DNA from: Patescibacteria group bacterium
GTDB taxonomy: Bacteria; Patescibacteriota; Minisyncoccia; Phycocordibacterales; Phycocordibacteraceae
DNA length: 64,000 nt
Direction of reading: 5' to 3'
Assembly (NCBI GenBank): GCA_040390125.1
Contig: JAZJYZ010000001.1
Span: forward strand, 163,698-227,697
The position numbers and the translations under genes were made by a program. The notes below the pieces were generated by a model. That model saw only the letters and a program-made list of their open reading frames with translations. It was not told the origin of the DNA and made no database searches. Of the stretch, positions 6,792 through 55,391 are shown piece after piece (position 1 is the stretch's first letter; every line of letters starts with the position of its first letter).

Positions 6792-7274
6792 ATGAGGTGT
6801 CAGCTTTCAGCTTTCAGCTTTCAGGCGACGCCTCGTCGGATCCGAAGGGATCATAGGAGGAAAGAAAGCTTTTCGCGAGGGATGACACTTATTGAAGTAG
6901 TCGTCGCCGTCTCTTTGATGCTTATAATTTTCTTGGGATTTTTTGGTGCCTATGTGGCGTCTGCTGACTTGGTGCGGAGCACTTCTGCCCGAAGTGGAGC
7001 TCTCTTTCTTATGGCAAACAGAATGGAATACATAAGGGGGTTGGCGTATGGCTCTATAGGTACTGTGGGTGGAACGCCGTCAGGAAGTCTTGTGGCTAGT
7101 GAGCCAAGGATTTTGAATGGTATTACTTACACCATTCGTACAACGGTTGCATACATTGATGACGGAGCGAATGGTGCCGGTGCCGGCGATTATAAAACAG
7201 TGAAAGTTGAAGCAGATTGGAATTTTAGAAATGTCTCACAAAGTATCTCTACTGTTACCTATGTCGCACCGTAA
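6792..7274 (+). CDS. Type IV pilin / pseudopilin with a prepilin-type N-terminal methylation motif (SRG|MTLIEVVVAV); true start uncertain
   Basis: Class III signal hallmark G followed by xTLIE with E at +5 and a hydrophobic helix. The only in-frame ATG upstream gives a 30-aa leader overlapping the AGCTTTCAG repeats; ATG at 6882 would give no leader. Confidence 0.75.
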   Translation: MRCQLSAFSFQATPRRIRRDHRRKESFSRGMTLIEVVVAVSLMLIIFLGFFGAYVASADLVRSTSARSGALFLMANRMEYIRGLAYGSIGTVGGTPSGSLVASEPRILNGITYTIRTTVAYIDDGANGAGAGDYKTVKVEADWNFRNVSQSISTVTYVAP

Positions 7275-7857
7275 AAACAGCACTACACGTGGCATGACCT
7301 TAGTTGAAGTCTTGATGACAGTTGCGGTTGTTGCAGTGGTTATGGTGAGTGCGTCTGATGCAGTGCTCTCGCTCTATCGGGCAAATTCCACAGGGACACG
7401 CGGAGTGTCGCAGGTCGGAAGTGCGAGGCACGCACTAGATGCATTGATGGAAGAGCTTCGCCAAAGCTCGTATGGTAACGATGGGTCTTATCCAATTGTT
7501 TCGATTGCCACTTCTTCGATTACTTTTTTTAGTGCTATTCCAAATAGTTCAAGTGCCATGCGAGTTCAGTATCAACTTTCAAGCACAACACTAAATCGAA
7601 GTACGGTGAGCCCAGGTACTCCGCCAACATACACAAGCGCCCCGGTCACCTCGGTTGCCACCGCATACAGTAACAATGTTGCTATGGGTATTCCTATTTT
7701 TCGCTATTACGATAAAAATGGTTTAGAAATTACTGACATGACTCGGACTACTGATGTTCGGTCTGTATCGATTGCAATTAGTATTCTCAATCCTGGGATG
7801 ACTACTCCGTTTATGCTGACTGCAACAACGACGTTGCGTAATTTGAGAGGAATATGA
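7261..7857 (+). CDS. Second pilin/pseudopilin (leader MSHRKNSTTRG | MTLVEVLMTVAVVAVV)
   Basis: Prepilin motif with E at +5; the ORF track starts earlier at TTG 7207, and ATG 7261 gives an 11-aa basic leader. Confidence 0.75.
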   Translation: MSHRKNSTTRGMTLVEVLMTVAVVAVVMVSASDAVLSLYRANSTGTRGVSQVGSARHALDALMEELRQSSYGNDGSYPIVSIATSSITFFSAIPNSSSAMRVQYQLSSTTLNRSTVSPGTPPTYTSAPVTSVATAYSNNVAMGIPIFRYYDKNGLEITDMTRTTDVRSVSIAISILNPGMTTPFMLTATTTLRNLRGI

Positions 7858-9104
7858 AGAATCTACCTCAGGTTCCAGCTTTCAGGTTCCAGCTTTCAGC
7901 TACAGGCAACAGAAGGGTGCGGGGGTTTTTGACGATTTTTGTACTCGTTGCTTCCTCCGTGTTTTTATTTTTACTCTCTGAGCTTATGGGCTCACTGACG
8001 TTAGAGCGTTTAGGGGGAACAATAGAGGCCGACAGTGAAAAAGCTTTTCATATAGCCGAAGCCGGGCTTGAGTACTATCGTTGGCACTTTGCAGAGTTTC
8101 CAGGTGATCTACAAGACGGTACTGCAAGTGCGGGGCCCTATGAGCATGATGTAGCGGATCCAGAAACTAGTAACACAATTGGAACATTTTCTCTTGATAT
8201 CTCAGGCATAACTTCATGCGGTGTACTCACATCCGCCACAGTGAACTCAACTGGTTCCATGGCTAGTAGCTCAACACACCGAACTACGTTGATTGCTGAA
8301 TATGGAAAACCCACACTTTCCGCATCAACGAGTCCGGCGAAGTCCGATGCTACAGCAATTGCAACATCGCTCCCAAGTTTGAAGACGTACGCACAGTCGT
8401 CAGGCGTTTACATTGCGACATCCACAGGGTATGGATACAAAATTGTTTTCAAATCGAACGGAACATTTGATGCGTCGCCCGTTACTGGTGTCACGGAGGT
8501 ATGGGGGTATTCAACGGATGATGGGTGGCAACAAGAGGATACGATTATTTCTACAACAGGTGTTGCGGTGAACCATACTGTGCCTTCCGAATGTCCGGTG
8601 GTATTTGTTGAAGATACTGTCTGGCTTCAAGGCACTGTTTCGGGCAAAGTTACGTTAGTTTCCGCAAATATAACAAACGCTGGCGTCGATCCGAATATTG
8701 TACTTACCGGAAACATTACGTACGCCCACGCATACGATGATGGTTTTACGGCGATTGCTGAAGATTCAGTACTGATATCACTAGATTCTCCTGACGTCAT
8801 GCAACTCTCAGGAATCTATGTAGCCAGCAAGGGTCACTTTGGGCGGCATCGCTATGATGCATCCGGCACTCACGCTGTTCCCGTAAGCCTTCAGTCGTCA
8901 GTGCTCCGCTCCACCCTCAACACATTTGGGACATTTGCTTCAATGGAGACAGTTGATACTAAATGGCTCTCTTCCGGTGCGTTTATTTCAGGCTATAGCA
9001 CAAGGACTGATGTCCATGATCCTTTCTTAGGAAAGCTACCTCCGCCGTTCACTCCGGTTACTTCAAATGACTTCCGTTTCACAGACTGGAGAATACAGGA
9101 GTAG
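7854..9104 (+). CDS. PilX-like minor pilin / pilus-associated protein (N-terminal TM helix, then an AFHIAEAGLEY motif typical of the PilX N domain)
   Basis: TM helix LTIFVLVASSVFLFLL followed by an A.AEAG motif; a GTG at 7917 is an alternative start, because the first 60 nt are AGCTTTCAG repeats. Confidence 0.6.
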   Translation: MKNLPQVPAFRFQLSATGNRRVRGFLTIFVLVASSVFLFLLSELMGSLTLERLGGTIEADSEKAFHIAEAGLEYYRWHFAEFPGDLQDGTASAGPYEHDVADPETSNTIGTFSLDISGITSCGVLTSATVNSTGSMASSSTHRTTLIAEYGKPTLSASTSPAKSDATAIATSLPSLKTYAQSSGVYIATSTGYGYKIVFKSNGTFDASPVTGVTEVWGYSTDDGWQQEDTIISTTGVAVNHTVPSECPVVFVEDTVWLQGTVSGKVTLVSANITNAGVDPNIVLTGNITYAHAYDDGFTAIAEDSVLISLDSPDVMQLSGIYVASKGHFGRHRYDASGTHAVPVSLQSSVLRSTLNTFGTFASMETVDTKWLSSGAFISGYSTRTDVHDPFLGKLPPPFTPVTSNDFRFTDWRIQE

Positions 9105-9163
9105 TTGTTAGTGAACAGTGGACAGTGTTTAGGGAAAAGAAACAGCACTATTTTTGAATTCTT

Positions 9164-14030: not shown

Positions 14031-14091
14031 TTTAAAAAAGAGATCCCCCCTAAACACTAGATGATTCCTGCGGATCCGATGAAACTGGTCC

Positions 14092-14520
14092 CTACGGACA
14101 CGACGAAGCGTCGCCTAAACCCTGCTTAATTTTCTCCGCCACTTCTTTTGCTCCTCCTTCTTTATATTCAGTTCCTATCCACGGCTTATGGGGGTCTCCT
14201 TCAATGCGGGGGATGATGTGCATGTGTGCATGAAATACTAGCTGATGTGCGGCAGGTTCGTTGTTCATTGTTATGTTAATGCCGTCTGCTCCGACGGCAT
14301 TTTTTATGACGGGTGCAAGATAGTACACTGTTTTCATTACTTCTAGCCAAACACTTTCCGGCATGTCCAGCATATTTCTATAATGAACTTTTGGAACTAC
14401 GAGTGTGTGGCCTGCATTATTAGGACGGATATCAAGAAATGCGAACGTATGCTCGTTTTCAAATAGCATTTCTGCCGGGATTTCTTTGGCAATTATTTTA
14501 CAAAATAGACAATCAGTCAT
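14092..14520 (-). CDS. HIT-family (histidine triad) nucleotide hydrolase
   Basis: HAHMHIIP histidine triad motif. Confidence 0.9.
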   Translation of the reverse strand: MTDCLFCKIIAKEIPAEMLFENEHTFAFLDIRPNNAGHTLVVPKVHYRNMLDMPESVWLEVMKTVYYLAPVIKNAVGADGINITMNNEPAAHQLVFHAHMHIIPRIEGDPHKPWIGTEYKEGGAKEVAEKIKQGLGDASSCP

Positions 14521-14623
14521 AGGTTAGGTGTCAGCTGCCAGCTTTCAGGTTCCAGCTTCTCTTAATTCAAAGCTGAAAGCTGGAACCTGAAAGCTTCCTC
14601 TCTAAAATGTTACCATGTCCTAA

Positions 14624-22400: not shown

Positions 22401-22460
22401 ACAGGTAGCTGTCAGCTTTCAGGTGTCAGCTTTCAGCTTTAAATCTAGAACTTCATAATT

Positions 22461-28722: not shown

Positions 28723-29919
28723 ATGGTAGATTTCGCACGCACTAAGCCTCACGTCAACGTCGGTACTATCGGCCACGTCGACCACGGCAAGACTACCCTC
28801 ACTGCGGCTATCCTTTCCGTTCTTGCAAAGGCAGGAAATGGATACAGCGCATCAGTGAAGGACGTCGCTCAGATCGACAATGCACCTGAAGAAAAGGCTC
28901 GTGGTATTACCATCTCCCTTTCGCACTCCGAGTACGAATCACCAGCTCGCCACTACGCACACATCGATGCTCCTGGCCACGCTGACTACATCAAGAACAT
29001 GATTACTGGTGCCGCCCAAATGGACGGTGCAATTCTCGTTGTTGCTGCAACGGACGGTGTGATGCCTCAAACGCGTGAACACATTCTCCTCGCTAAGCAA
29101 GTTGGTGTACCAAAGGTCATTGTTTTCTTGAACAAGGTTGACATGGTTGACGATAAAGACCTCGTTGAGCTCGTTGAAGAAGAAGTTCGTGAGCTCCTCA
29201 CCAAGCAAGGCTTTGATGGTGCTGCAACTCCGGTTATCCGTGGTTCAGGCTTGAAGGCTCTTGAGAATCCAGCACCAGGCAACGAATGGTCTGAGAAGAT
29301 CATGGAGCTTGTAAAGGCACTCGATGATTACATTCCACAGCCAGAGAGAGACGTTTCTAAGCCATTCCTTATGCCAATTGAGGACATTTTCTCGATTGAA
29401 GGACGTGGCACCGTGGTTACTGGCCGTATTGAGCGTGGTCAGATAAAAGTAGGTGAAGAAGTTGAAATTGTCGGCCTCCAGCCAACAGTTAAGACCACTA
29501 TCACTGGTATTGAAATGTTCAACAAGTCCTTGCAAGAAGGTATGGCAGGCGACAACGCAGGCATCTTGCTCCGTGGTACGAAGAAAGAAGACGTACACCG
29601 TGGACAAGTTCTCGGAAAGACTGGCACCGTTACTCCGCACACTGACTTTGAAGCAGAAGTCTACATTCTCTCAAAGGAAGAAGGAGGTCGTCACACACCG
29701 TTCTTTACAGGCTACAAGCCACAGTTCTACGTCCGCACTACTGACGTCACTGGCGATGTAACCTTGCCTGAAGGAGTTGAAATGGTTATGCCAGGAGATA
29801 CCGTGAAGTTTAAAGTGAAACTTGTAGCACCAGTTGCCCTTGAAGAACAACAGCGCTTTGCTATCCGTGAAGGAGGTAAGACTGTCGGTGCTGGCGTGGT
29901 AACGAAGATAGTTGCGTAA
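28723..29919 (+). CDS. tuf: Elongation factor Tu
   Basis: [10 protein letters not shown] and DAPGHADY motifs; 398 aa. Confidence 0.97.
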
Positions 29920-30016
29920 ATTAGAACGTAGAAAGTTGTAGGTAGAATGTAGAAAACATTTCAGCAAAGAAAGTTCTTTAAAAAACTACATACTACCTGC
30001 TACTTACTACCCACTT

Positions 30017-31666: not shown

Positions 31667-32347
31667 ATGAAAGCATCTATATACAACACAAGTGCAAAAG
31701 AAGTAGGGGAAATCGAACTCCCAGATAGCATTTTCGGTGTAAAGCGAAATGATGCCTTGGTGCATCAGGTTGTTCTTGCCATGCAGGCAAACGCTCGCAC
31801 ACCAGTGGCTCACACGAAGGGTCGTGGTGAAGTACGAGGAGGAGGTAAGAAGCCATGGAAGCAAAAAGGCACTGGACGAGCTCGTCATGGTTCTATTCGT
31901 TCTCCTATTTGGAGAGGAGGAGGCACCACACATGGTCCTGTAAAGGAACGTGATTTCTCGCAGAAGATAAATAAGAAGATGCGCGCAAAAGCAGTTGCAA
32001 CAGTTCTTTCAGAAAAACTCCGCAAAGGAAAAATGATTTTTGTTGACTCGCTTTCCTTCAAGGCTCCAAAGACAAAAGATGCAAAGGCAACCCTCGGAGG
32101 TCTTGCTAAGATTGCAGGATTTGCAGAGCTTGCTACCCGAAGAAATAATGCAGCGCTCATTCTTCTTTCGAAGCATGATGTTGCTGCAGTAAAGAGTTTC
32201 CGCAACATGAAGAATGTGATGGTTGATGAAGCAAGAAATGCAAACCCTGTTGACTTGCTTACCTACCGATATATCCTCATTGTAGATCCACAGGTTGCTG
32301 TTAAAACCCTCTCATCCCGCCTTTCTGATATTAAAGCTAAAAGCTAA
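31667..32347 (+). CDS. rplD: 50S ribosomal protein L4 (start at ATG 31667; C-terminus ...IKAKS encoded by AAAGCTAAAAGC repeats)
   Basis: 227-aa ORF reading as L4 (RGEVRGGGKKPWKQKGTGRARHGS... central region); position between rplC and rplW. Confidence 0.9.
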   Translation: MKASIYNTSAKEVGEIELPDSIFGVKRNDALVHQVVLAMQANARTPVAHTKGRGEVRGGGKKPWKQKGTGRARHGSIRSPIWRGGGTTHGPVKERDFSQKINKKMRAKAVATVLSEKLRKGKMIFVDSLSFKAPKTKDAKATLGGLAKIAGFAELATRRNNAALILLSKHDVAAVKSFRNMKNVMVDEARNANPVDLLTYRYILIVDPQVAVKTLSSRLSDIKAKS

Positions 32348-32374
32348 AAGCTATAACCTAAAAGCTGACTATAT

Positions 32375-33727: not shown

Positions 33728-36700
33728 ATGAACGTTATTTCTCGAAGTGTCAATTTTTCGTTTCTTTTTTTCGGGATCTCTTTTGCTTTGGTAGCAGTGC
33801 TTTTTGTTGCATTGCCAACGCCTGTTCATGCTGGTCCTCAAACTGGTGGTTGCGGAGAATCTTGGGGATATGAGTATACCGTAGTAGTAAACCCGTATAC
33901 GCCATTTACTCCTGCTCATGATGCCTGGCACTCACTTCACGGCGGTGATAGCTACACGGTACAGAGTGCATATCAAATAGCTAGCGTTGGTGATGAGGGA
34001 TGTCCTGTTAGTGATCCACCATACATAGCCCCTACTGTTGGCGTTGTCGTAGTTCCTTTAACTATTACTGCGGGTGAATCTTCCCAGCTTGCGTGGGGGG
34101 CCGAGAATACACTTTCTTGTACGGGCACGAACTTTTCAACTGGCTCGGCCACTCAAGGTGTAGTCACTGTTTCTCCAACAGTGACTACAACCTATTCTGT
34201 TAGTTGTACTGACGGTGCTACTACTGTATCGTCGAGTGCTACGCTATTTGTTAATCCACCACCTGTACCCACAGCATCTCTAAGCGCAAGTACAAATTCT
34301 ATTGTCTCAGGGAGCCCCTCAACGCTCACGTGGAATTCCACGAACGCCACTTCGTGTGCAGGTACTAATTTTTCAACCGGCGGAGCAACGGCAGGATCTG
34401 TGAGCGTTTCGCCAGTGAGTAGCACTTCATACCTTGTATCTTGCACAGGGCTTAGTGGATCGGCTTCAGCTTCTGTTACTGTCACCGTAACGCCTCCAGT
34501 CCTCCAAGCAAGTTGTTCAGTTTCATCCACGTCTGCCATTGTTGGGCAAGCAGTCACGTGGACTGCCGTACCTTCCGGTGGTACCGGCTCCTACACGTAT
34601 TCCTGGAGTGGAAGTGATAGTCTTTCAGGTACAGGAAGTTCAGTTTCGAAATCATACTCATCGACGGGTACCAAAACTGGCTCTGTTAGTGTCACCTCTG
34701 GATCGCAAACAACTTCGGTGACTTGCTCGAACAGTGTGTCGATAAGTAATGCTCCAGTTGCTGTTTCTTGTTCAGTATCTCCAACCTCTGCCACCGTCGG
34801 TAGCTCTGCTACGTGGAGCGCAAGTGCCTCAGGTGGCACCGGCTCCTACACGTATTCGTGGACTGGTACTGACAGTCTTTCCGGCACGGGTGCGTCTGTA
34901 TCCAAAACATATTCCACGACGGGAACAAAAACTGGATCGGTAACGGCAACCTCCGGCGGACAATCGGCTACAGCAAATTGTTCAAACAGTGTAGTGGTGA
35001 GTAACACTCCAGTAACTGGTTCTTGTTCGGTGTCGCCATCTTCTCAAACAACAGGCAGTGCCGTCACGTGGAGCGCAAGTGCTTCCGGTGGCACCGGCTC
35101 GTACAGCTATGTATGGAGTGGCACCGATAGTCTTTCAGGCAGTGCCAGTTCCGTTTCGAAGACGTATTCAAGCACTGGCACGAAGAGTGGCTCAGTAATA
35201 ATTACTTCAGGGGGAAATTCTACGAGCGTGACCTGTGCAAACTCGGTATCAGTAAGTTATCCGGCAATTACCGGCTCGTGCTCTGTGTCGCCTACAACTA
35301 TCACCGCAGGTGGTTCTGCAACGTGGAGTGCAAGTGCTTCTGGTGGCTCCGGTTCCTACACGTATTCTTGGAGTGGTACGGACAGCCTTTCTGGCACAGG
35401 CACATCAGTCACAAAAACCTACTCCAGTTCGGGTGCGAAGACTGCCTCGATTACTATTACTTCAGGCGGAAGTTCCGAGGTAATTAACTGCTCTAATGCA
35501 CTCACGGTAGGTAATGTGCCGGTAGGTGGTTCCTGCTCTGTAACGCCAACCAGTATGTATGCCGGTAGTTCTGCAACATGGACTGCTGTACCTTCAGGTG
35601 GCACCGGCTCGTACACGTATGTATGGAGTGGCACTGACAGTCTTTCAGGTACTGCTAGCTCGGTTTCAAAAACGTATTCAGGAAGCGGTATTAAGACGGG
35701 TTCCGTCGCAATCACTTCAGGAGGAAATTCTGCTACTGTGACGTGTTCGAATTCTGTTGCAGTGAGTGTGACGTTGTCGGATCTCATTACTGGTGCTGTG
35801 TCTCCAACTTCTGCCGTTGCAGGTGTTGCACAAATGTTTTCTGCAACAATCACCAACATTGGGCAGTCTGGGACGAATGGTGCTTTCACGAGTTTATTCC
35901 AGCGAGCAACATCTGCAGGTGGTGCAAATACGACCGATATTGGCACCGATGGCTCTCCGAGTGTGTCTGCAAATGGTACAGACGTGGCTGGGCTTTCGTA
36001 TGCGTTTCCCTCAGGAGGTATTTGGTACTTACGTGTTTGGGCCGACAAAAGCGGAACGGCGGATTCGGGGGCCATTAATGAGTCGAGTGAAAGCAATAAC
36101 TCAGGTGCATGGACTGCAATCTCTGTGTCGAGCCCAACATTGAGTGCGTACTGTAATGTCGCACCTGCCTCGGGATATTCTGGAGATACATTTACGTGGA
36201 CGGCATACCCATCTGGTGGCACCGGCTCCTACACCTATTCGTGGACTGGCAGTGACGGACTCTCCGGCACCACGCAAAGTGTTGCAAAATCATATTCGAC
36301 TTCTGGCACTAAGACTGGTTCCGTGACGGTGGTTTCTGGCGGGCAATCGGTAGGTGCCACATGTGCATCTGCAAATCTATCGAATGTTCCAAGTGCGCTC
36401 ATAACCGCAACTCCAAATTCTATTATTCTTGGCAACACGTCTCGTCTTGACTGGACTTCTTCAAACGCATCTTCCTGTAACAGTTCTGCTTTCTCGACCG
36501 GCGGGGCACCATCGGGTTCCGTAACCGTTACCCCTTTAACTACAAAAACCTATGACCTGACCTGTACTGATGGCACACGAACAGGTGTCTCTAGCGCAAC
36601 GGTGACCGTCGTTCCTGTTGGACTCACGCTTTCAATCAATCCTTCAACGACAGTTCGTCAAGGGGATCCTGCAACAGTTAACTGGTCAGTGAGTGGAAGT

Positions 36701-36871
36701 CCTGATTCTTGTTCAATTCAGGGTCCTGGTCTCTCATCAACCGCTCTCTCTGGGTCACGGGTAGTGACTATTACTGCGGAGAGCACTTACGTCCTCACGT
36801 GTACCTCAGGAGGTTCTTCGATAACCACTTCAGTCACTATAGGCCTGACCCCCCACTTTGAAGAGTTTTAA
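33728..36871 (+). CDS. Giant 1047-aa secreted Ser/Thr/Gly-rich tandem-repeat protein. It has a signal peptide, 6 copies of an 85-aa Cys-bracketed module (CSVSPTS..TW.A.ASGGTGSYTYSW.GTDSLSGTG.SVSKTYS.TGTKTGSV...C.NSV.VSN) and 4 copies of a second roughly 70-aa module (L.W.S.NA.SC....FSTGGA..GSV.V.P....Y.L.CT). It is inserted between rplB and rpsS
   Basis: Uninterrupted 3144-nt ORF; about 255-bp nucleotide-level tandem repeats (ggtggcaccggctcctacacgtattcgtgg recurs at 34576, 34830, 35088, 35342, 35596, 36212); hydrophobic N-terminus ending ...PTPVHA. Confidence 0.8.
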   Translation: MNVISRSVNFSFLFFGISFALVAVLFVALPTPVHAGPQTGGCGESWGYEYTVVVNPYTPFTPAHDAWHSLHGGDSYTVQSAYQIASVGDEGCPVSDPPYIAPTVGVVVVPLTITAGESSQLAWGAENTLSCTGTNFSTGSATQGVVTVSPTVTTTYSVSCTDGATTVSSSATLFVNPPPVPTASLSASTNSIVSGSPSTLTWNSTNATSCAGTNFSTGGATAGSVSVSPVSSTSYLVSCTGLSGSASASVTVTVTPPVLQASCSVSSTSAIVGQAVTWTAVPSGGTGSYTYSWSGSDSLSGTGSSVSKSYSSTGTKTGSVSVTSGSQTTSVTCSNSVSISNAPVAVSCSVSPTSATVGSSATWSASASGGTGSYTYSWTGTDSLSGTGASVSKTYSTTGTKTGSVTATSGGQSATANCSNSVVVSNTPVTGSCSVSPSSQTTGSAVTWSASASGGTGSYSYVWSGTDSLSGSASSVSKTYSSTGTKSGSVIITSGGNSTSVTCANSVSVSYPAITGSCSVSPTTITAGGSATWSASASGGSGSYTYSWSGTDSLSGTGTSVTKTYSSSGAKTASITITSGGSSEVINCSNALTVGNVPVGGSCSVTPTSMYAGSSATWTAVPSGGTGSYTYVWSGTDSLSGTASSVSKTYSGSGIKTGSVAITSGGNSATVTCSNSVAVSVTLSDLITGAVSPTSAVAGVAQMFSATITNIGQSGTNGAFTSLFQRATSAGGANTTDIGTDGSPSVSANGTDVAGLSYAFPSGGIWYLRVWADKSGTADSGAINESSESNNSGAWTAISVSSPTLSAYCNVAPASGYSGDTFTWTAYPSGGTGSYTYSWTGSDGLSGTTQSVAKSYSTSGTKTGSVTVVSGGQSVGATCASANLSNVPSALITATPNSIILGNTSRLDWTSSNASSCNSSAFSTGGAPSGSVTVTPLTTKTYDLTCTDGTRTGVSSATVTVVPVGLTLSINPSTTVRQGDPATVNWSVSGSPDSCSIQGPGLSSTALSGSRVVTITAESTYVLTCTSGGSSITTSVTIGLTPHFEEF

Positions 36872-36896
36872 TTTAGCCGTTTAGTGCTATTGGACC

Positions 36897-36926
36897 CTTT
36901 GTGCAACCTCCGGAGGTTGCACAAAG
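36897..36926. repeat. REP-like perfect palindrome ctttgtgcaacctcc|ggaggttgcacaaag (left flank of the transposase gene)
   Basis: The exact palindrome is shared with 37648-37689. Confidence 0.65.
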
Positions 36927-36945
36927 AGTGTGGTAGCCTAAATTG

Positions 36946-37638
36946 ATGCCTAAAGCATTACCAAAGTCGCGAGAAGGAATTGCTCCGGGGGAGTATTATC
37001 ATATTGTTAATCGTGGCGCTCATCGACAGACGATCTTTAAAGAAAAAAGCGACTGGCGCCGATTTCTTTTTAATGTGTTGTTTCTTCAATCTCCACATCA
37101 ATTTAAAAACATACATCGGATTACGGAAAGCTTTCTTCCAGATATTGGCTTTGCTGTCCCTAACGAAGATATCGAGGCTATCATAGAGAGTCGTTTTGTA
37201 GAAGTGGTTTGTTTTTGTCTCATGTCAAACCATTTTCACTTACTGGTCAAAGAAACTACTGAAGGCGGAATCGCACGCTATATGCAGCGTGTCTCTGACG
37301 GATACACAAAATATTACAATGTTAAATATGAAGCTACTGGGCATGTATTTCAGGGTCCATACAAAGCGGTGCATGTAAAAACAGACTCTCAGCTTCTCTA
37401 CACATCCGCCTATATTCATAGAAATCCTCGTGACATACGAGAGTGGTCAGGGAAGGAGTTTGAATACCCGTGGTCGTCACTCCAAGATTTTACTGACGCA
37501 AATCGATGGGGAGGACTCATAGTGCCCGAGATTGTTACGGGTCAGTTTTCCGTCACACCTAAAAGTAATTATGCTGATTTTGTTAAAACAACAACCGCCA
37601 AACTTTTAGCTGAGGAGCTTGAAGGCATCATTCTATAA
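36946..37638 (+). CDS. IS200-like / REP-associated tyrosine (Y1, HuH) transposase
   Basis: YHIVNRG..., HuH motif CLMSNHFHLLVKE, catalytic-Tyr region YTSAYIHRNP; 230 aa. Confidence 0.75.
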   Translation: MPKALPKSREGIAPGEYYHIVNRGAHRQTIFKEKSDWRRFLFNVLFLQSPHQFKNIHRITESFLPDIGFAVPNEDIEAIIESRFVEVVCFCLMSNHFHLLVKETTEGGIARYMQRVSDGYTKYYNVKYEATGHVFQGPYKAVHVKTDSQLLYTSAYIHRNPRDIREWSGKEFEYPWSSLQDFTDANRWGGLIVPEIVTGQFSVTPKSNYADFVKTTTAKLLAEELEGIIL

Positions 37639-37647
37639 ATTTCCTAC

Positions 37648-37689
37648 AACGCCATTTGTGCAACCTCCGGAGGTTGCACAAATGGCGTT
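37648..37689. repeat. REP-like perfect 42-nt palindrome aacgccatttgtgcaacctcc|ggaggttgcacaaatggcgtt (right flank)
   Basis: Perfect 21-bp arms; the core is identical to 36897-36926. Confidence 0.65.
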
Positions 37690-37781
37690 GACAGGAGGCG
37701 GGTGATTGGGATAGTATGCCCAAAGCTCGTGAGGGCGCATTTTTCTTAGTGCGTACCTGTTTGGGTAATACATACAACACA

Positions 37782-40441: not shown

Positions 40442-40507
40442 GGAGCTTTTAGGCAACGCTTCGTTGGATCCGTAGGGATCATAGGAAAAAGAAAAAACAA
40501 AAACAAC

Positions 40508-41638: not shown

Positions 41639-42169
41639 ATGAAAGGTATTACTTTTATAGGAATGTCAGGAAGTGGTAAATCAAGCGTAGGCGCAAGATT
41701 GGCAATGCAGATTGGATGGAAGTTTGTTGATCTTGATAAACTGATTTTGGAAAAACAATCTGCTACTCATCACGAAATAATGCAAAGGTTTGGTGAGGAA
41801 GGGCTTAAAGCTCTTGAGGAGCAGTACACACTAGAACTAGATTTTGCTAATACAGTTTTTGCACCTGGGGGGAGCTTAGTATATTCACAGCTCGCAATGG
41901 AAAAAGCGAAAGATGAATCTACGCTTATTTATCTTCGGGTTCCACCAAGGATCATTGAGAGTAGGTTAGGTGATCGCCTGCACCGAAATGGCATCGTTGG
42001 CCTTGAGGAGAAAGGCCTTGCTGGAGTTATGGCGGAACGCATTCCGCTCTATGAAGGCTATGCGGACTATGTGTTTGATTCAGAAATGCAGAGTGTTCAA
42101 GAGATGGCAGAAAAAATTATTACTACACTGCGAAGTCGTGGTTTAGATTTTCCCTATGCGGTTTCATAG
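41639..42169 (+). CDS. aroK: Shikimate kinase
   Basis: P-loop GMSGSGKSSVG; about 176 aa. Confidence 0.8.
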   Translation: MKGITFIGMSGSGKSSVGARLAMQIGWKFVDLDKLILEKQSATHHEIMQRFGEEGLKALEEQYTLELDFANTVFAPGGSLVYSQLAMEKAKDESTLIYLRVPPRIIESRLGDRLHRNGIVGLEEKGLAGVMAERIPLYEGYADYVFDSEMQSVQEMAEKIITTLRSRGLDFPYAVS

Positions 42170-43466
42170 CACTAACAAGCATTCAAAAGGCTTTTCTTTT
42201 TCTCAGGCAATTCTTGCAGGTCTTGCTCCTGACGGAGGGTTGTTCATGCCGGATCGCTGGCCATCTTTACCAAAACGTTTTTTTTTAGATTTAAAAGAGT
42301 CAACGTTCGCTGACAGTGCATTCTCAATAGCTAAGCATTTTGTGCCTCAAATCTCAGACAGAGACCTTCGTCGCCTAACAAAAGATGCCTTCAATTTTCC
42401 TGTACCCCTTGTTCCCCTTGGGGATGGGGTATTTTTGTTAGAACTTTTTCATGGTCCAACCATGGCTTTTAAAGACTTCGGTGCACGTTTTTTGTCTCGT
42501 ATTTCAAGTTTTTTCCTCCGCCAATCAAAAAAGAAGATGACGATTATTGTTGCCACGTCGGGTGACACTGGCTCGGCAGTTGCAAGCGGGTTTTTCAAGG
42601 TTCCTCATGTGCGAATATTTATTTTGTATCCAAGTGGAAAGGTAAGTCCACTACAAGAAAAACAGCTAACGACGTACGGAGGGAATATTACCGCTATCGA
42701 AGTGAAGGGCACATTCGATGACTGCCAAAAGCTTGCAAAACAAGCACTTGCTGACAGAGAGCTTGTGGAAGCCCTCAACCTCTCTTCTGCAAATTCAATT
42801 AATTTCGGACGATTGTTACCGCAGTCGTTTTATTATTTTTGGGCATGGAAGCAATTGCAAGAGAAAGGAATTTACAAAGATCCTGTATTCGTCGTGCCGA
42901 GCGGAAATTTTGGTAATGGGTTTGCTGGTTTAATGGCAAAACGAATGGGACTCCCTGTCTCGAAGTTTGTTTTTGCAACAAATGCGAATGCAATTGTGCC
43001 TAGTTACCTAAAGACAGGGAAATTTCTAGCTCAAAAATCAAAAAATACTATTTCAAACGCAATGGACGTGGGCAATCCGAGTAACTTTGCTCGTATTCTA
43101 GCTCTATATGACGGGAAGAGAGTGAAAATGAAAGAGGATATATGGAGCGAGAGTGTATCTGATGGGGTGACAAAAAAAACTATCCGTCGAGTTTTTGAAG
43201 AGTATGGGTACACGCTTGACCCACATACAGCAGTTGGCGTTGCAGCTGCATGGCGATTTCGAAAAGAAACAAAAAATGAAAATCCGATCGTAGTTCTCTC
43301 AACGGCACATCCGGCAAAATTTCGTGAAGTTGTGGAACCTGTCATCGGGAAGAAAATCACGCTGCCGTTGCAATTACGTGCTCCAATGAAAAAGAAAAAA
43401 CACTCACACCTGATTCCTGCTTCGTACGGCATCCTCAAGAAATTTTTATTGACTCACGAAGATTGA
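42156..43466 (+). CDS. thrC: Threonine synthase
   Basis: N-terminal ...LAGLAPDGGLFMP... and PLP-lysine region FHGPTMAFKDFG. Confidence 0.85.
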   Translation: MRFHSTNKHSKGFSFSQAILAGLAPDGGLFMPDRWPSLPKRFFLDLKESTFADSAFSIAKHFVPQISDRDLRRLTKDAFNFPVPLVPLGDGVFLLELFHGPTMAFKDFGARFLSRISSFFLRQSKKKMTIIVATSGDTGSAVASGFFKVPHVRIFILYPSGKVSPLQEKQLTTYGGNITAIEVKGTFDDCQKLAKQALADRELVEALNLSSANSINFGRLLPQSFYYFWAWKQLQEKGIYKDPVFVVPSGNFGNGFAGLMAKRMGLPVSKFVFATNANAIVPSYLKTGKFLAQKSKNTISNAMDVGNPSNFARILALYDGKRVKMKEDIWSESVSDGVTKKTIRRVFEEYGYTLDPHTAVGVAAAWRFRKETKNENPIVVLSTAHPAKFREVVEPVIGKKITLPLQLRAPMKKKKHSHLIPASYGILKKFLLTHED

Positions 43467-44003: not shown

Positions 44004-44184
44004 TTTGACCTCTTAGTTCGTTTCTGCTATCCTAGCAATAGCTTTTCGAAGCGCTTTTTCTTTACCCTTCAACTTCGTTCAGGGTGAAAGGCCTCTTCCC
44101 GAAAGGGTGAGGTACGGAAAAGGGCTCTAAAAGGCGAATACCCTTCATCTCAGCACAGGCTGAATGAATACGGTTCCCTAAAAA

Positions 44185-46471: not shown

Positions 46472-46999
46472 ATGGAACTCCACACACTTACACGCACAAA
46501 GAGTAACAAAGCAACCCGCCGTGTTGGCCGTGGAGGTAAGCGTGGCAAGACGTCTGGCCGTGGTTCAAAGGGTCAGAAGTCACGTGCTGGTGCAAAATTT
46601 CGTCCTGAATGGCGTGACATCATCAAAAAAATTCCAAAGCGACGTGGATACGGCAGAAACCGTTCTCGAACAGCCGTGCCACGCATCCGTTTTGCAACCG
46701 TGAATTTTGATACTCTCTCGAGACAGTTCAAGGCGGGGGACATCATTACTCCGATTGCATTGGTTAAGGCTGGAGCTGTACGCCGTATTTCTGGCAAAGT
46801 TCCTCCGATAAAGATTCTTGCTCGAGGAGAGATCAGCATGAAGCTCGCTTTTGAGGACGTTCTCATTTCAGAAGTAGCTAAGACACTAATTGAAAAAGCT
46901 GGTGGCACTGTCCGTGCTCCTATTTCAAAGAAGGTACTGCCTTCTAAAAAAGACACTTCTCCTAAAAAAGCTGCTTCCTCCCTAAAAGCTAAAAGCTAA
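46472..46999 (+). CDS. rplO: 50S ribosomal protein L15, directly after rpsE (no L30 gene), with a K/S-rich C-terminal tail
   Basis: MELHTLTRTKSNKATRRVGRGGKRGKTSGRG... Confidence 0.9.
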   Translation: MELHTLTRTKSNKATRRVGRGGKRGKTSGRGSKGQKSRAGAKFRPEWRDIIKKIPKRRGYGRNRSRTAVPRIRFATVNFDTLSRQFKAGDIITPIALVKAGAVRRISGKVPPIKILARGEISMKLAFEDVLISEVAKTLIEKAGGTVRAPISKKVLPSKKDTSPKKAASSLKAKS

Positions 47000-47011
47000 A
47001 AGCTGGTTACT

Positions 47012-48283
47012 ATGTCTGGATTTTTCACAAAACTCAAACTCATACTGAGCGACGGCACGCTTTTGAAGCGAATCGGTTTTGTCATTGCGGCACTCGCAGT
47101 ATTCAGGCTTCTTGCTACGATACCGATTCCAGGCATTGATCCAGACCGTCTTTCACAGTTTTTCTCAGGCAATCAATTCTTGGGTCTTTTAAATATTTTC
47201 TCCGGAGGAGGTCTTTCAAATCTCTCTATCGTTATGCTCGGTGTTGCTCCATACATCACTGCGTCAATCATCATGCAGGTTTTGACCATCATGTTCCCAA
47301 AATTGAAGACGATGTATCAGGAAGAAGGAGATCAGGGTCGCAAGAAGTTCAGTCAGTATTCTCGTCTCTTATCTGTCCCACTCGCATTCATCCAAGGGTA
47401 TGCATACCTCTCTCTGTTTGAGAGTCAGGGAGTTATTGATCAACTTCCGTTCATGGCGTTCATGTTGAACGTACTTATCGTAGCTGCAGGATCAGTCCTG
47501 TTGATGTGGATTGGCGAGCTCATGACTGAGTTCGGTATAGGTAATGGTGTCTCGCTCATCATTTTTGCAGGCATTGTGGCATCTGTTCCCCAGAATTTTG
47601 CTCAACTCTTATTTTCATTTAATCCCGCACAGATTCCTCTCTACATTGGTTTCATCGTCGCAGCCTTGGCGATTATCTACGGAGTGGTTGTCATGACTGA
47701 AGCTGAACGTCCAGTGCCAGTGACCTACGCAAAGCGTGTTCGTGGGAACAAACTCTACGGAGGTGTTTCTACCTACTTACCACTTCGCTTGAACCAAGCT
47801 GGCGTCATTCCAATTATTTTCGCTCTCTCTATTCTTCTTTTTCCTCAACTCCTTCTGAACTTCGCAGCGAAATCTTCTGTTCTCTGGCTTTCAGGGATCG
47901 CATCAGCGCTTCTTTCGTGGAATGGTGGTGCTGTGGTGTACGCTCTGTTCTATTTCCTCCTAGTCTTCCTCTTTACGTATTTCTACACCGCAGTCACGTT
48001 TGATCCAAACATGCTTGCCACAAACCTTCAGAAAAATGGTGCATTCGTTCCTGGTGTTCGTCCTGGGCTGCAGACCGCAGAGTATTTAGGGAAGGTTATT
48101 ACTCGTATCACTATGGTCGGAGCACTCTTTCTTGGTGTTGTTGCCGTGTTGCCACTTATTATGCAGTCCGTTACCGGCTTAACGACTCTCGCTATCGGTG
48201 GTACCGCACTCCTCATTGTGGTGTCAGTGGTATTGGATTTGGTGCGTAAAATCGAAGGGCAGATTTCTTTGCGGGAATATTAA
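47012..48283 (+). CDS. secY: Preprotein translocase SecY
   Basis: 423-aa polytopic membrane protein; conserved position after rplO. Confidence 0.95.
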   Translation: MSGFFTKLKLILSDGTLLKRIGFVIAALAVFRLLATIPIPGIDPDRLSQFFSGNQFLGLLNIFSGGGLSNLSIVMLGVAPYITASIIMQVLTIMFPKLKTMYQEEGDQGRKKFSQYSRLLSVPLAFIQGYAYLSLFESQGVIDQLPFMAFMLNVLIVAAGSVLLMWIGELMTEFGIGNGVSLIIFAGIVASVPQNFAQLLFSFNPAQIPLYIGFIVAALAIIYGVVVMTEAERPVPVTYAKRVRGNKLYGGVSTYLPLRLNQAGVIPIIFALSILLFPQLLLNFAAKSSVLWLSGIASALLSWNGGAVVYALFYFLLVFLFTYFYTAVTFDPNMLATNLQKNGAFVPGVRPGLQTAEYLGKVITRITMVGALFLGVVAVLPLIMQSVTGLTTLAIGGTALLIVVSVVLDLVRKIEGQISLREY

Positions 48284-51598: not shown

Positions 51599-51683
51599 GA
51601 TTCCATGGCAGGTTCTACGAAAATTTTAAACTTTAAATGGTATGTTAGACTAACGATGTTATTTAAAAATATTTTGGTGTTCT

Positions 51684-51749
51684 ATGGCAAAAGGAAATCA
51701 CTCGCAGAAAAAAGAGATGAAGAAGCCGAAGAAAGATAAGAAGAAGTAA
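51684..51749 (+). CDS. Unlisted 21-aa lysine-rich micro-ORF MAKGNHSQKKEMKKPKKDKKK, followed by a strong terminator
   Basis: Manual translation; terminator aaaaggcaccc gta gggtgcctttt at 51755-51780. Confidence 0.25.
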   Translation: MAKGNHSQKKEMKKPKKDKKK

Positions 51750-51754
51750 GTAGC

Positions 51755-51780
51755 AAAAGGCACCCGTAGGGTGCCTTTTC
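51755..51780 (+). terminator. Rho-independent terminator ggcaccc-gta-gggtgcc then TTTTCTCTTC
   Basis: 7-bp GC stem with a T-run. Confidence 0.6.
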
Positions 51781-51813
51781 TCTTCTCCAATCGGTAGCGT
51801 TACAATATGCACT

Positions 51814-52338: not shown

Positions 52339-52382
52339 TTGCCCGCAGGTGCGTGCGAGCGACACGTTATACTACTTGATAC

Positions 52383-55265
52383 ATGCCAGGATTTAATCCC
52401 AACAAAGGAATCGATACAAAAGCGGCAAAGCTCTCACCTGAGCATCAGCTTACGAAGCTTCGTGAGACTGCACGCTCAGGTGGTGGTGGCAGGGGTCAGC
52501 GAGGAGGTCCGGCATTGCCCGTTGAAACCTCTGTCCTTCCGGCTGTTTCGCAAGCTCTTGATGGCACCGAACAGGAAGAGAAGAGTGGCATCATTCTTGA
52601 ACTCACACCAGACTCAAATGACAAGGACATGGAAGAGCTTTTGGGGATTCTCCACGCTAGAGGATTCAAAGCGGTGATGAAAGAGCTCGACCGCATAGAT
52701 AATCCGCACCTTGAAGACGATTTTCATCGTTTACTTGTTCAATACCGAACGGCAGGGCACTCGATTCCGGGTCTTGATCCTAACGACCCTCTAGCAAAGG
52801 CACTCGATTTTGTACTTTTGGATGTTGCAGTTCCTGAGGCAGCACCGGGAAAACCAGGAGGCTCTTTGAAAGATATCTGTACGCAAATGGAGCAGTTTTA
52901 TTTGAGTATGATTCCGTTTGTTGCCCTGCCGGATACTGTGTTTTTGAAGGATTGGCAAAAACGACGGAGAATTCATCTCCAACATTTCACATTGGAAATC
53001 GCTGTTTCGCACACAAAAGAAGAGGCAGTCTTTTACCTATCAGTGCCTCGTGCGAAACGGGAGACTTTCGAAAAGCAGATTTTTGCGATGTTTCCTCGTG
53101 CGCGTGTCGTTGAAAAGAAGGATGACTACAATATCTTTAACCAGTTTGGTGCAACTGTGGGTGCTTCTGCGTACTATCATCGTCCGCCACCAATCCCCTT
53201 GAAGACCTCTGAGGAGTTTACCCACGATCCTTTGAACGTCACCCTAGCTGCACTATCGAAAATTACAAAAGAAGGGGAGGGAGCTGCAATTCAGATTGCG
53301 GTTGCTCCTGCGGGCGATTATCACTCGAAGCGTATCCGCTATGTGCTCGATGAGCTCAATAAAGGAAAGAGCGGGGCGAACGATGTGTTCCGAAAGAATA
53401 TGTATATGGAGCATTATTCGCCGATGCGTCGATTTTTCCAGAACCTCGGGAAAGGTTTCAAACTATTTCTTGAAAGTTCCGAGGAAAAAAAGAAGGACGA
53501 TAAGCATATTGATGCCTTTGCGACAGAGGCAGTGTCCAAAAAACTGAAGAGCGTTATTGTGGGTGTGAATTTACGCATCGTTGCTTCGGCTCGAACAAAA
53601 GAACGGGCTCATGCGATTCTCACTGAGATCGAAAATACGTTCGGGCAGTACGAAGATGCAAAGGCAAACCGACTTCGCTTTAAGCATTTAAAAAAGAAAG
53701 AACTCCGAGATTTCCTACGTGCATTTATCTTTCGAACGTTCGATCGCCAAGCACACGAGGGCTTTTTCTATCAGCTTTGGCTTGAGTGGACACGCAAAGC
53801 TGCGCCAACGCCTTTAATGCATAAGATTCCTTTGATGCCTATGAACTTGGCAGAACTTTCAACCATTTTTCACCTCACCATTGCTGGTGGTACGGCGTCT
53901 CGTGAAGCGAAGACTGCAAGCGCTAAGCTTGCACCTGCACCACCAGGGCTTCCAGACAAAGGAATTGTCATTGGTAATAATCGCTACTCGAATATTGCAA
54001 CACCCATTCATTTCACGCCGGACGACAGGCTCCGTCACATGTACACCATCGGACAGACCGGTACCGGTAAAACAAACTTCTTGAAGAATATGATTATTCA
54101 AGACATCGAAAATGGGGAAGGAGTGTGCTTCATCGACCCGCACGGCGTGGATGTATTGGAGATACTCTCACGCATTCCGAAAGAACGTTATGACGATCTC
54201 ATTTACTTCGACCCGGCCTATACCGCACGGCCCATGGGCCTCAACATGCTTGAGTATGATCCACGGTTTCCTGAGCAAAAGACATTCGTGGTGGATGAGA
54301 TGTTTAAGATTTTCAAAAAATTGTACGGCGATGTGCCGGAAGCTTTTGGTCCTATCTTCGAGCAGTACTTCCGTAATGCCACCATGCTTGTGCTTGAGGA
54401 CCCTGACACTGGTTCCACGTTGATGGATATTTCACGAGTACTCGCTGACGATGAATTCCGTGCGTTGAAACTTTCTCGTTGCAGAAATCCCGTCGTGACG
54501 CATTTCTGGGAAGACATTGCGGAAAATGTGCGTGGCGAAGGAGACTTGCGTAACGTCGTGCCGTACATCACGTCAAAGTTCGACATCTTCATCGCAAACG
54601 AAATTATGCGTCCAATCATAGGTCAGCAACGTTCCGCCTTCAATTTCAAGGACATCATGGACAATAAGAAGATACTTTTAGTGAACCTCTCCAAGGGTCG
54701 ACTTGGTGATGTGAATGCCAACCTCATTGGTCTTGTGATTGTCGGCAAGATTATGATGACCGCACTTGCACGCACGGAATATCTACATTTGAATCCGCCG
54801 AACTTCTATCTATATATCGACGAATTCCAAAATATCACCACCAACACTATTTCAACGATTCTCTCTGAAGCACGTAAATTCCGTCTCTCTATGACCATGG
54901 CACACCAGTATGTCGCACAGCTTGGCAAAGAAATCAAAGAGGCTGTTTTCGGTAACGTGGGCACCATGGCGGTGTTCCGTGTTGGGCCAGACGATGCTGA
55001 ATATATTTCAAAACAATTTCAGCCAACATTTGAAGTCACTGATTTCCTTAAAATCGATAATTACCATGCATACTTGAAGCTTCTTGCAGGAGGAAAGCCA
55101 GCACCACCGTTTAGTATAGAAACTATTCCATTCCAGCCGGGCGATTTCCTTAACATTGATGCTCTGAAGCAGATTTCATATCAGCGCTATGGACGAGCAC
55201 GAGAAGCGGTTGAAGCTGATATCCGTCAGAAATACGACCAGATGCGGGAAAACCAGAAAGACTAG
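52383..55265 (+). CDS. 960-aa protein. The C-terminal half is a VirD4/TraD/TrwB-like type IV coupling-protein P-loop ATPase; the N-terminal ~450 aa has no recognisable domain
   Basis: Walker A GQTGTGKTN followed by FIDPHG, Walker B YLYIDEFQNI, and an SEARKFRLSMTMAHQ TraD/VirD4-type motif. Confidence 0.7.
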   Translation: MPGFNPNKGIDTKAAKLSPEHQLTKLRETARSGGGGRGQRGGPALPVETSVLPAVSQALDGTEQEEKSGIILELTPDSNDKDMEELLGILHARGFKAVMKELDRIDNPHLEDDFHRLLVQYRTAGHSIPGLDPNDPLAKALDFVLLDVAVPEAAPGKPGGSLKDICTQMEQFYLSMIPFVALPDTVFLKDWQKRRRIHLQHFTLEIAVSHTKEEAVFYLSVPRAKRETFEKQIFAMFPRARVVEKKDDYNIFNQFGATVGASAYYHRPPPIPLKTSEEFTHDPLNVTLAALSKITKEGEGAAIQIAVAPAGDYHSKRIRYVLDELNKGKSGANDVFRKNMYMEHYSPMRRFFQNLGKGFKLFLESSEEKKKDDKHIDAFATEAVSKKLKSVIVGVNLRIVASARTKERAHAILTEIENTFGQYEDAKANRLRFKHLKKKELRDFLRAFIFRTFDRQAHEGFFYQLWLEWTRKAAPTPLMHKIPLMPMNLAELSTIFHLTIAGGTASREAKTASAKLAPAPPGLPDKGIVIGNNRYSNIATPIHFTPDDRLRHMYTIGQTGTGKTNFLKNMIIQDIENGEGVCFIDPHGVDVLEILSRIPKERYDDLIYFDPAYTARPMGLNMLEYDPRFPEQKTFVVDEMFKIFKKLYGDVPEAFGPIFEQYFRNATMLVLEDPDTGSTLMDISRVLADDEFRALKLSRCRNPVVTHFWEDIAENVRGEGDLRNVVPYITSKFDIFIANEIMRPIIGQQRSAFNFKDIMDNKKILLVNLSKGRLGDVNANLIGLVIVGKIMMTALARTEYLHLNPPNFYLYIDEFQNITTNTISTILSEARKFRLSMTMAHQYVAQLGKEIKEAVFGNVGTMAVFRVGPDDAEYISKQFQPTFEVTDFLKIDNYHAYLKLLAGGKPAPPFSIETIPFQPGDFLNIDALKQISYQRYGRAREAVEADIRQKYDQMRENQKD

Positions 55266-55391
55266 GCGACGCTTCGTCGGATCCGTAGGGATCACTTAGT
55301 GTTTATAGAAACTTCTTATAATTTCTGAGCTCGCCCTCCCCTAAACACTAAACGCTAGCCCCTAACCCCTCTTAGTGGTATAGTCGCTTCA

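Follow-up and report, generated by a model that had tools for sequence, protein, structure and literature searches.

The stretch of DNA analyzed here (the window; 64,000 nucleotides of a Patescibacteria group bacterium, positions 163,698 to 227,697 of contig JAZJYZ010000001.1, assembly GCA_040390125.1) contains four copies of a double-hairpin element that is, with a probability of roughly 0.55, a miniature insertion repeat resembling REP (repetitive extragenic palindromic) sequences and spread through the spacers, gene ends and coding regions of one Paceibacterota clade. Several features in combination fit this assignment: the repeat is short and forms hairpins, its presence and absence are lineage-specific, it sits after a fixed tetranucleotide in a fixed orientation relative to it and without duplication, it is indifferent to the orientation of genes, insertions in frame are tolerated, and there are modular tandem forms. 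Insertion 3' of a fixed tetranucleotide with no duplication, combined with hairpins at the ends, is characteristic of single-strand elements of the IS200/IS605 and REP types (PMC6006769, PMC8266576). The element has possibly moved as single-stranded DNA.

Copies of the Element in the Window

A 29-mer, GGCGACGCTTCGTCGGATCCGTAGGGATC, matches the window at 6824-6852(+), 40452-40480(+), 55265-55293(+) and 14087-14115(-) with 0-3 mismatches, compared with an expectation of 0 matches from 100 dinucleotide-preserving shuffles of the window. A covariance model built from the two hairpins (R1) and run over the 64 kb with filters off recovers these four full-length copies and no others, at 53-61 bits, and besides them a half copy at 14063-14076(-); the best of the remaining matches has 8.5 bits. 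All four copies claimed in the initial annotation are thus present (Table 1). The genes around them are pilC (T2SSF), a prepilin gene (N_methyl), HIT, L14, L24, a 960-amino acid TraG/TrwB-like ATPase and nucleoside diphosphate kinase (NDK); Pfam agrees with the flanking genes that had been named (pilC, HIT, rplN/rplX, the coupling ATPase and ndk), supporting among others L14, L24, the ATPase and NDK. The ATAGGA(GG) motif that had been described after two copies lies 3' of copies 1 and 2 (6853-6861 and 40481-40487).

The core of the element is 28 nt and the insertion repeat 28-30 nt overall. Copy 3 is longer and is composed in order of TAGG, hairpin 1, a variant hairpin 2 (GTCC-GTAG-GGAC), AGT, TTCATCG, hairpin 2 (GATCC-GCAG-GAATC) and A. 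The minus-strand copy after HIT is therefore real, but what was described as its short insertion is a recurrent 1.5-unit long form (14117-14062) seen at nine other loci. The placement of every copy in an intra-operon spacer does not hold, as copy 1 lies inside the leader of a probable prepilin open reading frame (ORF) and copy 3 overlaps the end of HIT in a convergent spacer.

Table 1. Coordinates of element copies, heptamer arrays and the RAYT-like gene region in the window (RAYT, REP-associated tyrosine transposase)
Feature	Position	Strand	Description
Copy 1	6826-6853	+	Core CGACGCCTCGTCGGATCCGAAGGGATCA, preceded by CAGG (6822-6825); within probable prepilin ORF 6792-7274; covariance model 57 bits
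Copy 2	40450-40483	+	TAGG, core (40454-40481) and TA; in the 66-nt rplN-rplX spacer; covariance model 57 bits
Copy 3	14062-14117	-	Long form; convergent spacer, overlaps 3' end of HIT ORF; covariance model 53 bits plus half-copy match
Copy 4	55263-55296	+	TAGG, then core (55267-55294); TAG at 55263-55265 is the ATPase stop codon; covariance model 61 bits
Heptamer array CAGCTTT	6800-6824	+	Ends in the CAG(G) preceding copy 1; translated QLSAFSFQ; Tandem Repeats Finder period 7, 3.6 copies, 100%; kept in L057
Heptamer-array hairpin adjoining copy 4	55297-55370	+	TTAGTGTTTA ... CCCCTAAACACTAAACGCTAGCCCCTAACCCC; multibranch fold with both mini-hairpins
RAYT-like Y1 (HUH) transposase gene	36943-37638	+	Pfam Y1_Tnp 9.3e-10; candidate trans-acting enzyme
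Upstream palindrome of RAYT-like gene	36895-36936		TTTGTGCAACCTCCGGAGGTTGCACAAA ... GTAG; different repeat family from the double hairpin
Downstream palindrome of RAYT-like gene	37644-37690		CTAC AACGCCATTTGTGCAACCTCCGGAGGTTGCACAAATGGCGTTG; abuts TTGACA-N17-GATAGT promoter-like site before rpsS
Example heptamer arrays	1021-1051, 5477-5566, 14525-14595, 22406-22436, 29918-30015
Further example heptamer arrays	32333-32367, 46982-47012, 56001-56031, 56359-56396, 58668-58698

Hairpin Structure and Covariation

The element is formed by two directly adjacent 5-bp hairpins, CGAYG-CYT-CRTCG and GNTCC-GNAG-GGANC, followed by a terminal A, and loop 2 occurs as GAAG, GTAG or GCAG. Covariation statistics were taken on 48 distinct sequences with 500 shuffles as control. 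Standard pairs occupy 97.7% of cells in the 27-nt paired core, five of the 10 pairs show changes on both sides, none of the 500 shuffles matches any observed measure, and the signal is lost when partner columns are slid. The changes are concentrated in two polymorphic pairs: stem 1 pair 4 (U-A 22, C-G 21, three exceptions) and stem 2 pair 2 (A-U 26, G-C 10, U-A 9, two exceptions), for which all six combinations are present. Compensatory changes are apparent within the window itself, copy 2 having CAACG/CGTTG as stem 1 and copy 3 showing G-C for A-T in stem 2. The covariation does not result from ascertainment, because the pattern used for the metagenome contigs left the covarying positions independent (Y with R, N with N). 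The proposal that each copy can form two mini-hairpins is thereby upheld in both stems, and the pairing, whose conservation among homologous copies had been set as a check, is conserved.

Pairing intermediates are about equally common as G.T, in three cases, and as C.A, in four to five, so that G-U pairing on one transcribed strand is not favored. The isolated 34-mer takes up the predicted fold at -12.8 kcal/mol (z = -2.1) and its complement folds at -10.2 kcal/mol, and multibranch hairpins formed by the element with the adjoining array reach z-scores of -3 to -4.8 at several loci. The ends CGAYG... and ...GANCA are not mutually complementary.

Distribution and Modular Forms

Further copies outside the window, the presence of which had also been set as a check, are found in at least seven related Paceibacterota genomes. 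Species-representative genomes were scanned once with a pattern leaving stem and loop positions free, and metagenome contigs with a looser pattern; the source genome of the window is not among the matches of either scan. In the species-representative scan four Paceibacterota/Parcubacteria metagenome-assembled genomes (JAGOSG01, JBBAAE01, SCTS01 and VMHB01) have 5-9 matches each, and the remaining matches are in CAYNOO01 (labeled Saccharibacteria), in one contig labeled Simkania and in three probable chance sequences. R1 finds 38 and 46 full-length copies in two sets of loci fetched from relatives (given L numbers here); these are partly redundant, JBBAAE01 being the same assembly as Ga0265292. 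The near-complete genome Ga0207952 (four contigs, 789 kb in total), which came to light with the looser pattern, has at least 19 copies in its examined parts, a lower bound because only loci fetched around pattern matches are included.

The Simkania-binned 4.2-kb contig (L005, JAGXTH010000098.1) is essentially identical to a Paceibacterota locus of Ga0207952. CAYNOO01 (L013/L079) encodes a RAYT-like protein 82% identical to that of the window and has a ribosomal protein cluster arranged like that of the window, and its L24 is not among the listed homologues. The two labels both appear to be wrong.

The N terminus of the ATPase in the window is 88% identical to that of the SCTS01 genome and 68-77% identical to those of the outgroups L070, L075 and L077. 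The element is not found in the outgroup ribosomal protein regions L070-L077 (~110 kb, some loci overlapping), indicating that the family is confined to a narrow clade. The degenerate pattern has 0 matches in viral contigs, and a phage origin is rejected on that basis. Rfam gives no relevant match in the window at the gathering threshold or around copy 4 at the E-value threshold, returning only transfer-messenger RNA (tmRNA) and a chance CRISPR direct repeat.

The copies are either singletons or direct tandems of 1.5-2 units. The long form, consisting of hairpin 1, a variant hairpin 2 (GTTCC/GGAAC or TGTCC/GGACC), AGN, (C)TTCRTCG and hairpin 2, accounts for at least 10 copies including copy 3 (nine loci in relatives). 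One orthologous site is seen in three forms, short in L007, long in L016 and still longer in L037, and two tandem units in L004 and L025 correspond to one unit at the equivalent sites in L015 and L026. At L037:6517-6573(-) a complete element directly follows the CAGG made by loop 2 of a truncated upstream copy (GCAG+G), illustrating that loop 2 and a following G recreate the YAGG target, which could explain the nested and tandem forms. The sole inverted pair seen is 1.1 kb apart in L028; its treatment as a REPtron around a 186-amino acid ORF was rejected, since the ORF is LemA and its neighbor an M48 peptidase.

Filled and Empty Sites

Five pairs of filled and empty sites define the inserted segment: window copy 1/L057, L032/L034 and L005, L047/L067, L011/L044, and the upstream copy of L006/L050. 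In each the extra segment is CGAYG...GGGANCA with a gap of 25-30 nt, placed after YAGG in three of the five and after YAG in the other two, with no direct repeat at its ends. The YAGG belongs to the target heptamer in at least three of the five empty sites, and comparison of L015 with L004 agrees with the five pairs. Orthology of copy 1 with L001:4446, suggested by a 404-amino acid ORF before each, was rejected by tblastn, as the ORF at L001 is not pilC.

Copy 2 is absent from the rplN-rplX spacers of L070, L072, L074, L075/L076 and L077, which are 4-14 nt long, and also from the element-bearing CAYNOO genome (L079), which has a 26-nt spacer whose two ends can be aligned with the parts of the window spacer that border the insert. 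A diverged copy follows secY in the CAYNOO genome, and none is present at that place in the window. Copy 3 is absent 3' of the HIT orthologue in L057, which ends ...AEKIKNTLKK and is followed by a terminator. Copy 4 is common to the window and L022, with the same TAG stop codon.

Heptamer Context and Orientation

The four bases preceding the core are T (88%), A (97%), G (99%) and G (97%), and the TAG recurs upstream in a 7-nt phase, with A/G at 84/82% at positions -5/-4, 66% at -12/-11 and 63% at -19/-18. More than 80% of copies have phased arrays on their 5' side. The orientation of the element is thus fixed with respect to its immediate sequence context, tying it to the heptamer repeats and not to genes.

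Most spacers in the window are made up of phased 7-nt repeats having only a YAG core in common (nYAGnnn), and TTAG- and CTAG-type units place stop triplets every 7 nt on both strands. Counting arrays of at least four phased YAG units, the window has 19 compared with 0.2 in shuffles; array density is alike in element-bearing relatives (loci fetched around elements) and 0-0.5 per 10 kb in outgroups. In the usual layout a left arm (nYAGnnn) is separated by a loop from its complement, the right arm, an inverted arrangement that gives long hairpins, with the mini-hairpins branching off the left arm or the apex. Whole arrays are exchanged for other heptamer types between genomes whose genes on either side are 90-99% identical.

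The statement that orientation always matches the flanking genes is true in the window, where each of the four copies points the same way as at least its upstream gene, but not for the family. Copies between co-directional genes in Ga0207952 are 8 sense and 7 antisense, and the first set of loci with orthologues collapsed has about 12 sense and 5 antisense. In the spacer of one divergent gene pair (643/424 amino acids) the element points one way in L023 and L012 and the opposite way in L006.

Copies in Coding Sequence

The ORF that holds copy 1 appears to start at an ATG abutting the pilC stop codon (TAAATG). The L057 prepilin shares this start (TAGATG) and agrees in its first 11 codons, CAGCTTT three times among them; the window gene has exactly 30 nt more, which adds the 10 residues ATPRRIRRDH before the cleavage motif G/MTLIEV in a leader reading MRCQLSAFSFQ(ATPRRIRRDH)RRKESFSRG/MTLIEV, with the N_methyl motif at residues 28-49. 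In a second prepilin (L053/L020; L053:3004-3110) the ATG overlaps the upstream stop codon (ATGA) and the copy is read in another frame. These leaders are unusually long at 30-35 amino acids and translate heptamer repeats plus element.

At gene ends, the HIT ORF (14092-14520, minus strand) runs into copy 3 and has the loop 2 TAG as its stop codon, and the ATPase gene terminates in the TAG preceding copy 4 in L022 as in the window. At L068:7845-7878 a copy lies in frame within the DnaG linker, after the DnaB-binding domain and before the C-terminal domain. The DnaG linker of L008 (about 1230-1330) has heptamer-like repeats (GAAAGCC AAAAGCT GAAAGCG) in place of the element, and the two linkers are too diverged for a clean insertion boundary.

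The RAYT-like Gene and Its Palindromes

The window encodes one Y1 protein of the HUH class, the best NCBIfam match of which is REP-associated tyrosine transposase (30 bits; cut-off 80). HFHLLV (the HUH motif) and YIHRNP are present in its translation. The gene sits in the ribosomal protein cluster between the gene for a PKD protein and rpsS, in relatives between rplB and rpsS, and the gene and its position are kept in L070, L074 and L079, the last being element-bearing. Perfect palindromes (TGTGCAACCTCCGGAGGTTGCACA plus GTAG) stand on both sides of the gene in inverted orientation, with GTAG pointing inward. This palindrome covaries between genomes and is also dispersed in relatives (L002:431, L007:6074, L037:6198 and L059:4983). 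As the flanking palindrome is a different one, the evident substrate of the RAYT-like enzyme would be the other hairpin, and its connection with the double hairpin is no more than a lead. A profile from 120 homologues finds no other Y1 gene in the 720 kb of DNA covered.

Insertion Model and Alternative Explanations

In the proposed insertion mechanism a new copy would be placed directly 3' of a heptamer YAG(G) core, in one orientation relative to the heptamer, irrespective of the direction of transcription and with no target duplication. Hairpins would persist because the spreading process recognizes folded single-stranded DNA or because the host selects them afterwards. Effects on genes would be side-effects of insertion, namely the stop codons supplied to the ATPase and HIT genes, the 10 residues added to the prepilin leader and the longer rplN-rplX spacer. 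The most likely agent would be an HUH/Y1 single-strand transposase acting in trans, for which the RAYT-like gene is the only candidate seen; even if the element is an insertion repeat, this enzyme link, drawn from sequence features, is tentative and the odds are against it. The most specific form of the model, a minimal 28-nt single-stranded DNA transposon of two recognition hairpins moved in trans by the RAYT-like Y1 enzyme and targeting the heptamer YAGG, we consider rather unlikely. If it is true, loop 2 and a following G (GYAG+G) would renew the element's own target, allowing nested and tandem forms, and arrays and element together would be a lineage-specific system rebuilding spacers, stop codons, signal-peptide leaders and protein linkers.

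A number of observations weigh against the insertion repeat. In the window as in L070, L074 and L079, the RAYT-like gene has TGTGCAA...TTGCACA-type palindromes around it and not the double hairpin, and the RAYT-like family has more than 750 homologues in Patescibacteria, including the element-free outgroups L070 and L074. Neither an autonomous parent nor any transposase gene bounded by the double hairpin was found in the 720 kb. Hairpins 1 and 2 are unlike in both stem and loop, whereas the ends of IS200/IS605 elements resemble each other. Replication-strand bias is not detected, the top strand lying 23 times on the G-rich and 15 times on the C-rich strand (not significant; local GC skew over 8 kb is a weak proxy). 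Junctions are uncertain by 1-3 nt within the 25-30-nt gaps, and G4 is missing from two of the five empty sites. Over 52 nt, flanks past the core included, copies 1 and 2 are 83% identical, which fits recombination copying larger tracts. Orthologous copies are much better conserved than their flanks, the core of copy 4 being 28/29 identical between the window and L022 compared with 26/47 over the next 40 nt downstream (flanking genes ~75%), which suggests selection or homogenization and not a decaying selfish insert.

The last three of these points speak for a serious rival, in which the element would be a structural module that the host selects as a useful branch of the large heptamer-array hairpins. 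It would travel from spacer to spacer through ectopic gene conversion, made possible by the similarity of the heptamer arrays, and would need no transposase; possible roles would be the protection of mRNA ends, the insulation of cistrons or a protein-bound folded DNA site as with the BIMEs. The embedding of most copies in 5' phased arrays, folding within the multibranch array hairpins, the swapping of whole spacers between genomes with flanking genes 90-99% identical and the ability of both orientations to fold as RNA argue in the same direction. We nonetheless regard this explanation as markedly less probable than the insertion repeat, as the outgroup rplN-rplX spacers all lack a heptamer array to recombine with, the insertions in the dnaG linker and the prepilin leader are hard to square with a selected function, and the isolated 34-mer is of modest stability. 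The initial annotation had correctly recognized a genuine repeat that is not a promoter but had favored a sense-strand RNA signal in polycistronic mRNA, for processing, protein binding or translational coupling, which now appears improbable. The co-orientation of the window copies with at least their upstream gene, the covariation of the hairpins, the frequent position of sense copies 5-30 nt past a stop codon and the ability of the copy 1 loop-1 CCUC to pair with a downstream GGAGG speak for such a signal. Set against these are the 8:7 orientation in the best-sampled genome, the opposite orientations in the same divergent spacer, the lack of a G.U excess over C.A intermediates, the empty sites (relatives lack three of the four window copies, namely 1, 2 and 3, at the corresponding positions), the in-frame copies inside coding sequence and the absence of an Rfam match. 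ATAGGAG is likewise found after copies that are not followed by the start of a gene (L024 and L058), and the loop-1 variant is uncorrelated with a downstream GGAGG; a switch sequestering the Shine-Dalgarno sequence of copy 1 (alternative CCUC:GGAGG fold) is rejected because the two do not co-occur across copies. Recognition as double-stranded DNA, either as an uptake sequence marking self DNA or as the binding site of a dimeric protein, is the least probable explanation and very hard to sustain. Candidate Phyla Radiation (CPR) bacteria rely on DNA uptake via type IV pili, and pil genes in the window, a sequence strongly kept between genomes with ~79% identical genes and a mostly intergenic, orientation-independent placement would suit it. 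The density of the element is only ~1 per 16-40 kb, however, compared with about one per kb for known uptake sequences, and the A-T/T-A/G-C swaps at one pair keep complementarity and not base identity, pointing to a hairpin rather than a base-specific duplex site.

Comparison with Known Repeat Systems

The element shares with the REP/REPIN-RAYT systems (PMC2817692, PMC3116915, PMC3733652, PMC8266576) a hairpin-forming unit of 20-40 nt with pairing maintained among copies, a conserved unpaired 5' tetranucleotide (GTAG in REP, YAGG here), a dispersed and mostly extragenic distribution with occasional copies in genes, including replication genes, an orientation independent of transcription and a RAYT-like gene in the genome. 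In place of one 8-20-bp palindrome there are two different 5-bp hairpins, in place of hundreds of copies there are tens (at least 19 per 0.79 Mb, a lower bound), and singletons or direct partial tandems replace the inverted pairs of REPIN/BIME. The GTAG/CGTC tag of REPs is not the 5' tag here, which is YAGG, GTAG being present just as a loop 2 variant, and the RAYT-like genes do not form REPtrons with the element, as they are flanked by the other palindrome.

IS608 and ISDra2 are the comparison cases in the IS200/IS605 family, guide sequences being described for IS608. With this family and its miniature derivatives, the PATEs (PMC6006769), the element has in common the insertion 3' of a short target in fixed orientation with no duplication, hairpins at both ends and a Y1 HUH family in the genome. 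The IS200/IS605 elements differ in having similar subterminal hairpins served by one TnpA. The element here consists of two unlike hairpins alone with no room for IS608-type guide sequences, has no full-length parent among the sequences of the 720 kb and shows no lagging-strand bias with the weak proxy used. The missing GTAG tag, REPtron and single palindrome set it apart from REP proper, and the missing end similarity, with no parent found in the 720 kb, from the IS200/IS605 derivatives. A miniature inverted-repeat transposable element of the Correia kind is likewise not indicated, as the ends are not complementary and the filled/empty pairs have no target-site duplication, and the 8:7 orientation, the absence of copies 1-3 from orthologous sites in relatives and the lack of an Rfam match separate it from cis-regulatory RNAs of the Rfam type.

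The Rickettsia palindromic elements and the in-gene REPs (PMC3733652) are also small palindromic repeats found in frame in genes they do not destroy. The Rickettsia elements are ~100-150 bp and unrelated in sequence, whereas the element here is mostly between genes. Its context is reminiscent of the TAACTGA heptamer repeats of Beggiatoaceae and Cyanobacteria (PMC4679880), which are tandem 7-nt units with stop triplets in spacers near start codons. The heptamers here differ in comprising many types sharing only the YAG core, in their inverted hairpin-forming arrays and in their turnover between close relatives, and the double hairpin itself, unlike TAACTGA, is not a heptamer repeat. The STRR sequences of cyanobacteria are comparable intergenic heptamer direct repeats.

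REP families, RAYTs, in-gene REPs and RAYT-like genes with unrelated self-complementary flanking repeats have all been described (PMC2817692, PMC3116915, PMC3733652, PMC8266576). Literature searches turned up no paper that connects Patescibacteria with REP, RAYT or heptamer repeats. Genomes of CPR/Patescibacteria (about 0.75 Mb) are usually held to be streamlined and poor in mobile DNA. The recent burst of a tiny structured repeat together with heptamer arrays in this clade points to unexpected genome dynamics, in which operon spacers have become longer through the repeats (that of rplN-rplX, for example, is 66 nt compared with 4-26 nt), genes have received stop codons and proteins additional residues. 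Should the element be moved by a Y1/HUH enzyme, few substrates of this class would be as small, and it would provide a simple model for the recognition of folded single-stranded DNA and a 4-nt target. In practice, gene callers will misplace starts and stops near these elements, the repeats are convenient strain markers, and recurrent intergenic hairpins from one genome window should not be read as regulatory RNAs.

Other Features of the Window

The S10/spc ribosomal protein cluster is interrupted twice, at 33728-36871 and 41639-43466. The first interruption, between rplB and rpsS, encodes a 1047-amino acid PKD/CARDB protein with five 255-nt tandem repeats (34463-35725), and the second, between rplE and rpsN, contains shikimate kinase, threonine synthase and small ORFs and is not seen in L070-L079. 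Upstream of rpsN (S14), a ~170-nt spacer (44004-44184) contains blocks, such as AGCAATAGCTTTTCGAAGCGCTTTTTCTTTA and GGCGAATACC, that are conserved in every relative compared. Rfam has no match for this spacer, which could represent a ribosomal protein leader not described so far or a small RNA. In a 248-nt spacer that contains a long imperfect inverted repeat, positions 56405-56579(+) give a weak full-length match to 6S RNA (18.4 bits, E = 0.07, gathering score 46.4) and are a possible divergent 6S RNA. ARAGORN predicts no tRNA genes in the 64 kb and does not call the tmRNA gene at 61494-61900(-), which Rfam identifies at 103.7 bits.

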